From Sedimentisphaerales bacterium (GTDB taxonomy: Bacteria > Planctomycetota > Phycisphaerae > Sedimentisphaerales > SM23-30), in the NCBI GenBank assembly GCA_963666285.1, contig OY762711.1: a stretch of 64,000 nucleotides of DNA. The stretch is one strand, 5' to 3'. Positions within the stretch are counted from its first letter, which is position 1. Each line of letters opens with the position of its first letter. The position numbers and the translations under genes are program-made. The notes beneath the pieces were generated by a model. That model was not told the origin of the DNA and did no database searches. It saw only the letters and a program-made list of their open reading frames with translations. Positions 60,510 through 64,000 of the stretch are shown piece after piece.

Positions 60510-60912
60510 GAACCAGACTCTGAAGTATAGGTTAAACGCATCTTGCTATCTCGGACACACTAGTGGAAATATGTACATATAAAATTACATAACCCTTGTA
60601 AGGATATAAGGACTTTTTTAGATATGCTGTTTCTCTGGAAACAGTTTTTATTGAGTGGGAAACTAGGCAGAAATTGGACAGGGGACTGGGGAGGTTTGTC
60701 TTGGAATGGACAAGGCTGAGTGGGGGAGATTTATCAAGTCATTATTGTAATGTCTGGGGATGGGCATTAAAGTATAAGTTGATATCCCATCGTTATTTAA
60801 GTCTTTTAGGAAAGTATATATATTATGAGTATGATAAAGTTGCTGGTGAAAAAAATAAAGTTAAAATAATGTATGTTAAGAAATATTGTGAGATAGCATT
60901 ATAACTATAGTG

Positions 60913-61413
60913 ATGAAAATAACAGAAAATAAAATTTTAGAGATTTTGCTCAAGAGTCGTATGAAACTTACTGCTTATATACGTACTATTGTAGGGGATT
61001 TTCATTGTGCAGAGGATGTTTTCCAGGATGTTTCCATGAAAGCAATTCGCTCAAGTGAACAATTTAAAGATATAAAACATCTCGAGCGTTGGCTTTGGGT
61101 TGTATGCCGCAACGATGCGTTAATTAAGCAGAGAGAACAAAAGAAATTACCTGTTTTTATAGACAAAGATATATTGGATTCAATTCATGATGAGTTCCAG
61201 AAAACAAACCTTTATGATTTAAATGATACAGAAATAAAATTAGAGAAATGTTTAGGTAAGTTAACAGGTTTCTCCAGAAAACTGATCATGTTGAGATATC
61301 GTAAGAACTTAACTGGGCAAAAGCTAGCAAAAGAGCTGAATAGAAAAGTAGAGTCGATCTATGTAGCTTTGAGCAGGACTCATAAGACTTTACGAGAATG
61401 CATGAAGAGGTAA
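60913..61413 (+). CDS. ECF-type sigma-70 factor (planctomycete/verrucomicrobial type)
   Basis: Region 2 LTAYIRTIVGDFHCAEDVFQDV...WLWVVCRN; region 4 CLGKL...LIMLRY...LAKEL...VYVALSR...LRECM. Confidence 0.9.
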   Translation: MKITENKILEILLKSRMKLTAYIRTIVGDFHCAEDVFQDVSMKAIRSSEQFKDIKHLERWLWVVCRNDALIKQREQKKLPVFIDKDILDSIHDEFQKTNLYDLNDTEIKLEKCLGKLTGFSRKLIMLRYRKNLTGQKLAKELNRKVESIYVALSRTHKTLRECMKR

Positions 61414-61436: not shown

Positions 61437-63170
61437 ATGAACCAGAAAAACGACAAAGAAATAAAAGACAAATTGGAAGAATTTGATTCACTTGTATATG
61501 CCTACTTTGATGGTATGGTAGATATACAGCAAATGGATGTCTTAAAACAATATTTGAGAGAAAAGTCATATGTTCGCAGGTTGGTAGATCTTTGTAGGCA
61601 CGACCAGTTGATTTATGAGTTAATGTCTTATGATGAACAGACGTTAGGTGATATTGAAACAAAAGTCTTTAGTGAAATCAAAGACGAAGGTAGTGTTTTA
61701 AAGGATTTAATTGCGTTAGAGCAGAATTCACCTGCAATTGAAATCCATAGCGAAGAGAAAAATATTGAAATCATATCAGAAATAGTTGAAAAAAAACAAT
61801 CTACGGGGAAATTTATTAAGTTGTATAATCGGATGATTTATATAGCTGCTGTATTTATGGTCATATTTATCGTTTATGCTAATGTTTTCCCCCCGCAATT
61901 ATCTGAAGAAGTAGCAACAGTGGTTGATCAATTGGATGTTAAGTGGGATATTTCTTCAGCTAAGCTAAAAAATGGTGAAAGAATACTAACTAATCAGTTG
62001 CCTTATAAGGTTGAGAAAGGGATAGTTAAGTTTTCTTATGATGAAGGAGTCGATGTTGTTATAGAAGGGCCAGCAGAGTTTACCGTAGAAAAGAAAGGTA
62101 TAACAATATCCAAAGGTCTTTTGTACTCGTATGTTTCAGAAGTTGGTCAAGGATTTACTGTAGATACTCCCAATAATCGGTTTATTGACCATGGCACAGA
62201 ATTTGGTGTTTATGTTGATCAAAATGCAACATCAGAGCTTCATGTTTATACTGGTGCAGTGCAATATTACTCCGGAATAAAAGGAGCTCCTAAGGCCAGT
62301 AAGACAATTAGAGCAAATAATGCTAGAAGGTTTGATGCAGATTCTGGGCAAATTCAAAATATACGAGTTGAAGAGAATTTCTTTGCCAGAGATGTAAATT
62401 CAAAAACAGGTATAATATGGCGTGGTCAGGATATAGATTTGGCAGATATTGTTGGCGGTGGTACTGGCTTCGGAGGTGGCGAGCTGGAAAGCGGTATTGA
62501 CGTTGAAGATGGTCAGTGGAAGAATAAGGAAGTGCTGTATAGACAAAACTTGAGTGTCGGATGGATAAGATATAGTGACAATAAATATAATAAGGTTCCA
62601 ACTATAGATTATATTGATGGTGTATTTGTTCCATATGATGCTAATGGTCCGGTTCAACTTTCATCAAAAGGGCATAAATATTCTGGTTTTCATGTAGGTA
62701 GTAACGAGCACTGGAACAATATTTGCTTTGGTGCCTGGCATGAATCAAGTCATGCACCTAAGCATAATTTGAGCTCTGAAGGTATAACTTATGGTTTAGA
62801 TAGTGATACGGCTGCAATTACAATACATTCCAATCAGGGAATTACTTTTGACTTAGATGCGATCAGGAAAAATATACCTGAAAGAAGAATCTCTAAATTT
62901 ACAACAAAAGTAGCGATTTCAGAATCGATATTATTTTTTGGCAAGGAAGACGGTGTCGAAGAAAATCCTTCAAAGGTTGACTTCTGGTGTTTTGTCGATG
63001 GCGAGCTAAGAGATAAGCAAGAAGGTATTACATATAGAGACGGGCTGGTTGAAGTTGAAATAGTCCTGGATGACAACGAAAGATATTTAACGCTCGTTGT
63101 AACAGAATCTGATGATAAATGTAGTTTTGACTGGGCTTTTCTTGCAAGACCGGTATTGGTTGTAGAATAA
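61437..63170 (+). CDS. FecR-domain anti-sigma factor with C-terminal NPCBM-like domain
   Basis: Cytoplasmic N-domain, TM (YIAAVFMVIFIV), FecR motifs GVDVVIEGPAEF, GFTVDTP, DHGTEFGV, LHVYTGAV; DLADIVGGG; HSNQGITFDLDAIR; RYLTLVVT..D...DW. Confidence 0.85.
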   Translation: MNQKNDKEIKDKLEEFDSLVYAYFDGMVDIQQMDVLKQYLREKSYVRRLVDLCRHDQLIYELMSYDEQTLGDIETKVFSEIKDEGSVLKDLIALEQNSPAIEIHSEEKNIEIISEIVEKKQSTGKFIKLYNRMIYIAAVFMVIFIVYANVFPPQLSEEVATVVDQLDVKWDISSAKLKNGERILTNQLPYKVEKGIVKFSYDEGVDVVIEGPAEFTVEKKGITISKGLLYSYVSEVGQGFTVDTPNNRFIDHGTEFGVYVDQNATSELHVYTGAVQYYSGIKGAPKASKTIRANNARRFDADSGQIQNIRVEENFFARDVNSKTGIIWRGQDIDLADIVGGGTGFGGGELESGIDVEDGQWKNKEVLYRQNLSVGWIRYSDNKYNKVPTIDYIDGVFVPYDANGPVQLSSKGHKYSGFHVGSNEHWNNICFGAWHESSHAPKHNLSSEGITYGLDSDTAAITIHSNQGITFDLDAIRKNIPERRISKFTTKVAISESILFFGKEDGVEENPSKVDFWCFVDGELRDKQEGITYRDGLVEVEIVLDDNERYLTLVVTESDDKCSFDWAFLARPVLVVE

Positions 63171-63250
63171 AATAGCTCGATTTCAAGTATTCGTCAAATA
63201 TGTTTAGGCAGTATGGTTTCTTAATAATGAATAAAAGAAGAGAATGGTAT

Positions 63251-64000
63251 ATGAGAGCGCCAAGCGAAGCTAATGTAGTCAAGCCGGCCAATCCGGCATG
63301 GGTAAGGGCTAGCCACCCGCCCATTACAGCACCGGGCGTGCAGAGAGGTAACGAACTGTACGAAGCCCCGGGAAAGGAGTTTGTCAGCCACAACGCAAGT
63401 GAAGGTGTTGAGCCCCGAAATTATTCCTTATCGCATCCGGGCCAGGGTTTTCATATGCCTGAAGCCAATATCGATATATGCGAAATACGGCGAGCATCTA
63501 TCGACGAGCCGGGGTCTGAGTCCGTAGCGGGCAAACGAACTGACTGCATTGGAACTTGGGAGAACCGAAGTGCTCCGAAAGGAAGCGGCCAAGGAGCTGA
63601 AACCGTGACGCGGCCGTATGGCATTTTGGTAGTCGGACTGACTCATAGTAGAGGAGTAAACAGGGTAATGCCTGTTGAGTTTCGAAGTTTGAGGCACTCG
63701 AAGGGGTCAGCATTAATGTGTAAAGGCGAAACAGGATATTGGCCAGGCACTGAACTGGAAGAAACCATGAACGTTCCACAGCGTCTTCTATCGGATACTT
63801 CTACAAGGCACATTACTTTGCCTTATGTAGCCGTCAAAGTGAGCATTAATGAAGAGCCGGATGAGGGAAATCTTCAAGTCCGGTTCAGTGAGGGGCATGC
63901 GTTTCCTTGCACAAAATATAATGAAACTCAGAATTTGTTAAATTAATGAAAGGAGGCGACATGCCTACTCGACAAAAAAGAGGTTTTACATTAATTGAAT
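63251..64000 (+). CDS. Intron-interrupted prepilin-type (GFTLIE) gene, 5' part: join(63251-63254, 63974->64000)
   Basis: Ligated exons read ATG AAA AAA AGA GGT TTT ACA TTA ATT GAA = MKKRGFTLIE, the class III signal start of DUF1559-like proteins. It follows the ECF/FecR pair and runs off the window. Confidence 0.8.
63255..63973 (+). mobile_element. ORF-less group IIB self-splicing intron (719 nt)
   Basis: 5' GAGCG-CCAAG, with CCAAG pairing CTTGG (63555-63559); EBS1 TCATAT (63451-63456) is complementary to 5' exon ATATGA; D2 63564-63630; D3 63638-63710; short D4 63711-63851; D5 GAGCCGGATGAGGGAAATCTTCAAGTCCGGTTC (63854-63886, AGC triad, GAAA loop); D6 with bulged A 63967; 3' end AC. Confidence 0.9.

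Follow-up and report, generated by a model that had tools for sequence, protein, structure and literature searches.

Identity and fold of the intron

We analysed a 64,000-nt stretch of DNA (hereafter the window; G000:C1:1344001-1408000, G000 being the genome of this Sedimentisphaerales bacterium) in which the start of a prepilin-type gene is interrupted by a group II intron without a reverse transcriptase (RT) gene. The intron is 719 nt long, lies on the plus strand at 63255-63973, begins with GAGCG and ends with CGAC; its extent was established with two Rfam models, additional copies and a consensus fold. An initial annotation made from the sequence alone had placed an RT-less group IIB intron directly behind the ATGA of this gene. 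Our sequence analysis confirmed 63255-63973 as a true group II intron that lacks an RT gene; its build is IIB-like because it has a second exon-binding site (EBS2). In an Rfam cmscan, group-II-D1D4-6 (RF02005) matched 63288-63524 over the full model (1-225) with 112.2 bits (gathering score 49, E = 3.6e-32). Intron_gpII (RF00029), which describes domains V and VI (D5/D6), matched 63852-63973 with 52.3 bits against a gathering score of 40 and terminated precisely at the proposed final base of the intron. The covariance models thus support the fold, and the coordinates annotated for the domain I closing helix, domain V, the branch point and both pairs of exon- and intron-binding sites were all correct against the sequence.

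Domain I (D1) extends from 63260 to 63559, is closed by CCAAG (63260-63264) with CUUGG (63555-63559), and has the architecture with EBS1 and EBS2 loops that is characteristic of group II introns, in keeping with the full-length RF02005 match. Domain V (63854-63886) was recognised by RF00029, RF04357 and RF04336, and its pairs are invariant or compensated. The extended domain VI hairpin (63889-63971) has a minimum free energy of -29.6 kcal/mol (z = -5.76), a stability equalled by none of 200 shuffled sequences. The bulged branch-point A at 63967 is the seventh base from the 3' end, which reads AC, so that domains V and VI show the arrangement of a group II ribozyme with a bulged A near a 3' AY. 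An RNAalifold consensus of four RT-less relatives (the window copy, a deletion variant named v9, L044 and L049) contained 162 pairs, 41 of them with a compensatory change, and recovered the D1 closing helix, D2, D3 and D5. A remnant of domain IV without an RT open reading frame (ORF) lies at approximately 63700-63850, as judged from an alignment of the window copy, v9 and the RT-bearing relatives F1 and F2 described below; part of it still aligns with the sequence in which the RT genes of the latter two begin. No ORF of at least 60 codons with similarity to RTs was found within the 719 nt, and the sole long ORF is a read-through frame at 63200-63946.

The 5' exon of the window copy ends with ATATGA at 63254, in which the host ATG occupies 63251-63253. 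The last bases of the intron are CCUACUCGAC, and the 3' exon begins with AAAAAAGAGG at 63974. In the order exon/intron ... intron/exon, the splice sites read GAATGGTATATGA / GAGCGCCAAGCG ... GACATGCCTACTCGAC / AAAAAAGAGGTTTTACATTAATTGAA, and the predicted ligated junction is GGTATATGA^AAAAAAGAGG. Joining the exons in silico gave ATG-AAA and the in-frame N-terminus MKKRGFTLIE, as had been annotated. The 3' exon (63974-64000, plus strand) runs past the window, and the spliced ORF has 271 codons. Both PF07963 (N_methyl; 29.6 bits, cut-off 21.2) and TIGR02532 (32.1 bits, cut-off 16.3) matched from residue 1 of the 3'-exon reading, which carries the G-F-T-L-I-E prepilin leader. At E <= 0.001, Pfam gave no DUF1559 match in this gene.

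Copies and RT-bearing relatives in the same genome

A DNA search of G000 recovered eight copies of 719 nt, which vary only at positions 244, 542 and 633 (three differences at most) and form two sets of four, together with the 648-nt variant v9, which has a 71-nt deletion. The D5/D6 regions of all eight copies scored above the Rfam gathering score. Since eight near-identical copies occupy different sites, the intron appears to have been mobile recently. The genome also harbors two relatives of 1929 nt, F1 and F2, which are 85% identical to the RT-less copies over D1 and each encode an RT of 443 amino acids (TIGR04416, 340 bits). RVT_1 was the only Pfam domain detected in these RTs, indicating that they lack an endonuclease domain. 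Against PDB sequences they matched LtrA (4e-45) and a 427-residue group II RT (7e-44), values that do not discriminate between RT classes. Near-identical copies and a related RT-bearing intron are therefore found in one genome, as in TeI3-like non-autonomous introns. The annotation had called for a maturase in trans or self-splicing, and the discovery of F1 and F2 makes it plausible that an RT/maturase from these relatives could act in trans.

The RT of F1 (G000:C1:910721-912649) has the motif YADD, which in F2 (G000:C1:5395339-5397267) is changed to YADN by a single G-to-A substitution. Only F1 may thus be competent as a reverse transcriptase, and F2 may still serve as a maturase. A lone D5/D6 segment at G000:C1:4809701-4809800 on the minus strand (RF00029, 53.2 bits) resembles the RT-bearing introns but has no recognisable 5' part, and represents a truncated copy. 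A third group II RT match on the minus strand at G000:C1:3875013-3876035 (TIGR04416, 315 bits) contains one in-frame TAA and probably marks a disrupted intron from a different lineage. Two of the copies, c8 and c7, occupy neighbouring genes on the same strand, for a GH16 hydrolase and an esterase, with 2.9 kb between them (G000:C1:3630865-3634538), and c5 and c2 are separated by 7 kb (G000:C1:5266367-5274238); insertions may cluster locally.

Host genes and splice junctions

All eight copies are inserted directly after ATGA, and an A comes next in the 3' exon of each. When the exons were joined in silico, seven copies opened ORFs of 271, 512, 379, 86, 153, 333 and 515 codons, and c5 opened only five codons; by comparison, 26.7% of the 6259 TATGAA sites in the genome open at least 80 codons. 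Five of the eight host ORFs belong to clear protein families: the prepilin-type protein of the window, a transglutaminase-like protein, an RND efflux adaptor (TIGR01730, 236 bits), a BD-FAE esterase and a DUF3472+GH16 hydrolase. The remaining sites are two ORFs without a family and the non-coding site of c5. As these hosts are unrelated, there is no sign of targeting to DUF1559 or prepilin genes. The suggestion that the intron recurs at the starts of DUF1559-type genes that begin with GFTLIE was not upheld, for only one copy in eight resides in a gene of the prepilin type.

The predicted junction could be compared with an intron-less gene in the case of c3, the copy in the RND adaptor. A homologue from the same genus (51% amino acid identity, 378 versus 379 residues) begins AAGGAA-N8-ATGAAGTTA, which encodes M-K-L from an ATGAAG start. 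The predicted ligated c3 junction, AAGGAA-N7-ATGA/AGCTA, likewise encodes M-K-L, so the intron-less gene starts exactly at the predicted junction. Similar searches for c8, c7 and c2 returned partial homologues or none, leaving c3 as the only copy with a usable intron-less homologue.

In three DNA contig sets the intron at the window locus behaves as a repeat with a depth of about eight times that of its flanks. No contig in the three sets spans it, so no empty site was seen, although contigs cannot show its absence. A second sample of the same study (run X3 on L001:1169-1916) yielded a 1196-nt contig of about 115-fold depth. In this contig, 448 nt of unlike sequence precede 332 nt of the 5' flank and 416 nt from the start of the intron. 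The 5' flank may therefore be present in another context in that sample.

Two genes on the same strand immediately precede the interrupted gene, one for a sigma factor of the ECF type (60910-61413) and one for a protein with FecR and NPCBM domains (61437-63170). Neither belongs to the intron, and the three genes may form one transcription unit. The copies outside genes, namely c5 (5266367), v9 (1613560) and F2 (5397267), as well as L069, are flanked by purine-rich repeats (AGGATGA repeated, AATTATGAATGCTGAATTATGA, GAAGAGAG and others). These flanks contain several motifs resembling a Shine-Dalgarno (SD) sequence plus ATGA, and v9 and F2 have 22 nt of 5' flank in common. Such repeats may be decoy or landing-pad sequences.

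Landing sites of the lineage

Relatives of the intron were drawn from 100 related genomes, a species-representative genome collection and metagenome contigs, and were retained if their ends could be placed. Distant loci (L082-L150 and L187-L240; RT identity of 41-47%), whose ends were not located by patterns, do not enter any of the counts. Matches were present in 16 of the 101 genomes searched, G000 included. Lineage loci came from Phycisphaerae, Pirellulales, Lentisphaeria, Victivallaceae, Melioribacteraceae and Ignavibacteriales, and close RT homologues (about 80% identity) carry names that include Sedimentisphaera, a metagenome-assembled genome of Methanosarcinaceae and Patescibacteria. 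A phylum-wide DNA search of 401 genomes with the D3-D6 part returned only D5-sized matches outside G000 and no further RT-less relatives. In L052, L063 and L070 (from the relatives G012 and G018), only about 300-400 nt separate the 5' end from D5 and the region of the EBS1 hairpin is replaced; these are decayed or miniaturised copies.

The survey gave 52 distinct 5' junctions, 46 from the lineage and six from sister introns with a short domain VI. The exon ends with ATGA at 34 lineage junctions, GTGA at two, CTGA at one, ATGT at one, ATGG at two and other sequences at six (F1, L047, L048, L050, L052 and L063). None of the six sisters, whose RTs are 50-59% identical and whose domain VI has an ordinary length of 33 nt, follows ATGA; their exons end with TCCC, GGGA, GACA (three cases) and TTGA. 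Twenty ATGA or GTGA junctions had enough 3' flank to be evaluated: 13 open at least 80 codons, two stay open to the end of the contig (67 and 45 codons) and five are short. The host gene of L044 begins with a twin-arginine signal. These comparisons suggest that the lineage is specialised for the translation starts of many unrelated genes. The earlier description of the intron as domesticated or specialised is thus sustained in its second term, given that 34 of 46 junctions are ATGA; domestication is unlikely in view of the recent mobility of the eight copies.

Exon-binding sites and target pairing

EBS1 (UCAUAU, 63451-63456) lies in a hairpin loop that is unpaired in the Rfam model. It pairs at all six positions with the intron-binding site IBS1 (AUAUGA, 63249-63254), which holds the host ATG plus the first base of codon 2. 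The EBS2 loop (AAAUUAUUCCUUAU, 63418-63431), also unpaired in the Rfam alignment, contains an anti-SD-like UUCCUU core at 63424-63429. The candidate IBS2 (GAAUGGU, 63242-63248; 5' exon positions -13 to -7) is complementary to AUUAUUC (63420-63426) over 7 bp, two of them G-U, and its register is that of the clear EBS2-IBS2 pairs in L045, L047, L048, L077 and L078; in relatives with clear pairs, IBS2 is found at about -15 to -7. EBS1 and IBS1 covary across the relatives: UCAUGG/CCAUGA (L045, L161), CCGUGU/ACACGG (L047), CUGUUUU/AAAACAG (L048), ACAUUU/AAAUGU (L073), CCAUUA/UAAUGG (L164), GGGACA/UGUCCC (L078) and UCUUAA/UUAAGA (F1). The two pairings given in the annotation, with an additional base pair for EBS2, are thus consistent with unpaired loops and with covariation.

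The segment of the EBS2 loop is dissimilar between RT-less and RT-bearing copies. At the eight insertion sites, the best complementary run to the EBS2 loop within -18 to -7 averaged 6.5 bp, compared with 5.09 bp at 968 gene-start-like NATGAA sites (P = 0.007 by resampling) and 4.21 bp at all 23136 NATGAA sites, from which none of 100000 resamples reached 6.5. AAGGR occurs upstream of six of the eight insertions versus about 26% of start-like TATGAA sites. By a grouping of our own, a UCCUU core is found in the EBS2 loop of seven of 12 ATGA-targeting families and in none of six others. Some families have a specific EBS2 instead, such as UAAAAUUU with GAUUUUA in L045 and L060, so that mimicry of an anti-SD sequence by EBS2 would be common, not universal. 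In many members of the lineage, EBS2 looks like an anti-SD sequence.

A putative ribosome-binding site and start codon in domain VI

The initial annotation made no mention of a ribosome-binding site and in-phase AUG in domain VI or of a frame open from end to end of the intron. The SD-like tract, AAAGGAGG, is located at 63949-63956 and the AUG at 63961-63963, both on the plus strand, the latter 13 nt from the 3' splice site and in phase with the 3' exon. From here the RNA reads AUG CCU ACU CGA C/AA, and the predicted product of the unspliced RNA would be MPTRQ-KRGFTLIE. Because one base of codon 2 precedes the intron and 13 nt separate the AUG from the intron's end, this AUG is in the host phase at every ATGA site.

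We surveyed 47 distinct 3' junctions, 41 with an enlarged domain VI (50-126 nt) and six with a short one; the set contains one known duplicate (L045 = L072). ATG is present at -13 in all 41 long domain VIs. In 40 of them it is preceded at 4-15 nt by an SD-like tract (AGGA, GGAG or GAGG), and the 3' exon starts with A in 37. The six short-domain sisters have ACG or GGG at -13, none has the tract, and C or T follows their splice site. The change from ACG to AUG is matched by a change from CGU to CAU on the 5' strand of the domain VI helix. In the window copy an anti-SD-like UUUCCUU (63902-63908) pairs with the SD tract, and CAU pairs with the AUG. The same arrangement is seen in relatives with covarying partners (UUCCUU/AAGGAA and CUCCU/AGGAG). 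As both signals are paired in the hairpin, they would be masked in the folded ribozyme. Such masking fits a regulated or coupled start but is also compatible with a mere helix strand.

An open frame across the intron

In the copies of this genome, the frame set by the host ATG is free of stops through intron positions 3-689, or 229 codons. It ends with tandem stops, UAA UGA (63944-63949, plus strand), and the last A of UGA is the first A of the AAAGGAGG tract; the UAA and the domain VI AUG are spaced by 17 nt. The other two frames of the window intron contain 14 and 20 stops, and relatives have 9-14 stops in the host phase. Only one of 20000 shuffled introns was open as far, and an analytical estimate gave 6e-6. 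L044, which is 80% identical and comes from a different family within the order, has no stop between 98 and 688 in the equivalent frame, which terminates at the position seen here. The frame of v9 would be open without its 71-nt deletion.

A database search with the 231-residue reading returned 252 matching 'proteins', a number that gives no frequency because only copies with an open frame can be found in this way. One match of 230 residues (69% identity) begins on the ATG of its host, and a group of about 195 residues (57-66% identity) shares an identical stop after LLN. We considered and rejected a real protein in this 231-codon frame: the conserved residues coincide with conserved ribozyme segments (the 3' part of D1, D3 and D5), and precomputed Pfam annotation was empty for all 120 of the matches listed. 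Of 14 RT-bearing members with a long domain VI, eight have an ORF of 115-152 codons that crosses D1-D3 and terminates at, or overlaps with, the start of the RT gene; none of five short-domain introns has one. In L046, L076 and L162, for example, the upstream ORF stops at 478 and the RT ATG is at 481. These frames support, short of proof, a design in which ribosomes would travel along the intron by terminating and restarting.

Discussion

We propose, as the probable explanation of these observations taken together, that the element is a non-autonomous IIB-like intron from a lineage that homes to translation starts and carries a spare start in domain VI. The intron would have retrohomed to one base past the start codon of the prepilin-type gene by reverse splicing guided by EBS1, EBS2 and EBS3, as established group II biology suggests. 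The exon-binding sites of the lineage appear tuned to starts: EBS1 would recognise (N)NAUGA, EBS3 would take the following A, and the EBS2 loop often has a UCCUU core. Such tuning would account for landing on many unrelated genes, mostly those of secreted proteins beginning M-K. The RT/maturase of the two 1929-nt relatives most likely served to spread the eight copies and probably assists their splicing; trans-action is an assumption here because these relatives differ in EBS1 and EBS2 and their D1 is only about 85% identical. Splicing would restore ATG-AAA and the MKKRGFTLIE terminus. The anatomy of domain VI suggests that the host protein would also be made from unspliced RNA, with MPTRQKRG replacing the MKKRG leader, so the invaded gene may be expressed with or without splicing. 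A spare start of this kind would most likely make the insertion nearly harmless. Ribosome binding and splicing would compete since the pairing of EBS1 and EBS2 would mask the host start region in the folded precursor.

In the copies of this genome, restart would be coupled to translation from the host AUG. We suggest more tentatively, and with less confidence than doubt, that the intron is built for being translated through as well as spliced, by a relay of termination and restart. A ribosome from the host AUG would read 229 codons over the ribozyme and halt at the UAA-UGA on the SD-like tract. Its arrival would melt the domain VI hairpin that hides the tract and the AUG, and restart 17 nt downstream at 63961 would give the host protein without splicing. 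In RT-bearing relatives, the upstream frame that leads up to the RT start codon would make production of the RT depend in the same manner on translation from the host.

Several observations weigh against the proposal of a start-homing intron with a spare start. The RTs that would act in trans belong to introns with different EBS1 and EBS2 and incompletely conserved D1, and that of F2 has YADN in place of YADD. At the window copy itself, the EBS2 pairing depends on two G-U pairs, there is no AAGGA upstream of the insertion, and no empty site was found, the best homologue of the 3'-exon protein being 41% identical (five relatives). Twelve of the 46 lineage junctions are not ATGA, and five of the 20 evaluable start-codon junctions (c5, v9, F2, L077 and L163) lead to no long ORF. 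A phase match alone has a one-in-three chance. The SD tract and AUG are base-paired and are possibly just one strand of a structural helix. Moreover, the ATGA target, long domain VI and AUG may represent one evolutionary event, since they could derive from a single ancestor. The last two points, along with the known occurrence of RT-less copies beside RT-bearing relatives (PMC4424553; PMC2882425), would suit an ordinary selfish intron that inherited its EBS1, whose domain VI tract and AUG are by-products of a helix, and whose host is expressed only after splicing. We consider this unlikely, though not negligibly so. All 41 long domain VIs keep the AUG and 40 the AGGA/GGAG-type tract despite lengths of 50-126 nt and a covarying partner strand, the sister clade lacks all three traits, and the host-phase frame is open far beyond chance.

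The intron also begins with GAGCG in place of the consensus GUGYG, and its host belongs to a large paralogue family and could be dispensable, as would befit a decayed, non-splicing insert that has inactivated a prepilin-like gene. GAGCG is nonetheless the 5' end of all 11 copies in G000, and among relatives, most of which have GUGYG, three others (L077, L177 and L178) start with GAGUG. With eight copies separated by at most three differences, D5/D6 scores all above gathering and seven of eight host ORFs intact, decay is very improbable. Even less credence is due to the idea that the lineage has been domesticated for, or specialises in, the starts of DUF1559 or prepilin paralogues. Genes of the latter type are numerous in relatives (11 to 72 matches per genome) and one hosts the window copy, but the other seven copies are in unrelated surroundings, DUF1559 was not matched, and related introns occupy many different genes in other phyla. 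Finally, the intron could have been recruited by the host as a regulatory switch, in which folding of EBS1 and EBS2 masks the host SD and AUG, and splicing or unfolding sets the output of secreted protein. The pairings of EBS1 and EBS2 do involve the start codon and SD region of the host, and domain VI sequesters its own SD. The copies are recent, however, and located at unrelated genes and one non-coding site, as fits a parasite better than a regulator; we regard a switch as highly implausible.

Avoidance of genes is regarded as the way in which bacterial group II introns persist. If our proposal is correct, a lineage that homes to SD+ATG+A with its own ribosome site and AUG would have found a new, near-costless route into coding genes, which would explain how an RT-less derivative multiplied within genes that encode secreted proteins. 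Should the more tentative idea of translation through the ribozyme hold as well, the intron would be a retroelement able both to locate translation starts and to rebuild them, its exon-binding sites mimicking the anti-SD sequence and the initiator anticodon. As EBS2 would act as an anti-SD mimic, the rules for retargeting are testable. For annotation, caution is advised: gene-finding software will assign the start of such genes to the domain VI AUG or report the ribozyme as a 231-residue 'hypothetical protein', as the 252 database matches illustrate.

Comparison with known systems

In the full-text literature searched, in which subscription journals are poorly covered, we found no description of a ribosome site plus start codon in domain VI, of homing to ATGA or of read-through frames. 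The Avi.groEL/EcKTE56.groEL introns form a proteobacterial IIB1 clade at initiation and termination codons (Michel et al. 2007, as described in Gomes et al. 2025, PMC12584367), the one clade known at such codons and still without explanation ('currently unknown' in PMC12584367). Like our lineage (ATGA at 34 of 46 junctions), they insert in or next to start or stop codons and leave the gene usable, a stop codon being replaced by another stop in their case. The kinship with Avi.groEL proposed in the initial annotation is not supported. That clade is defined by 300-700 nt inserted at the D1 base, and its CL1 RT has a C-terminal endonuclease domain (PMC12584367), whereas the whole intron here is 719 nt, the D1 model begins at intron position 34 with no insertion at the D1 base, the related RT has 443 residues with RVT_1 only, and the hosts are planctomycete-type and other phyla. 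The SD and AUG in domain VI are, on this comparison, a distinctive device of the present lineage.

The Thermosynechococcus elongatus introns TeI3/TeI4 likewise consist of near-identical RT-less copies beside RT-bearing relatives able to act in trans (Mohr et al. 2010, PMC2882425), and trans-mobilisation is reported for this species (PMC2882425; PMC8643678). As in our genome, both kinds reside together and target specificity diverges through EBS changes. Unlike the present copies, TeI3/TeI4 are mostly found between genes, in insertion sequence elements or in other introns, and the available text describes neither a start-codon rule nor host translation signals. RT-less introns are rare in bacteria and nearly always accompanied by related RT-bearing introns (Zimmerly and Semper 2015, PMC4424553), as is also the case here. 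They are regarded in that source as splicing-only introns that have lost mobility, whereas eight copies at eight sites point to recent spread.

A further parallel is offered by group IIC and IIC-attC introns, which also recognise a generic functional signal (a terminator hairpin or attC) and not one unique sequence (PMC12584367). For IIC-attC introns, outward-facing promoters that drive the cassette behind them are reported (PMC3001079), a parallel to an intron that supplies expression signals. Group IIC introns have no EBS2, recognise a DNA hairpin and supply a promoter; in the present lineage, by contrast, the target SD+ATG+A would be read by EBS2, EBS1 and EBS3, and what is supplied is a ribosome site and a start codon.

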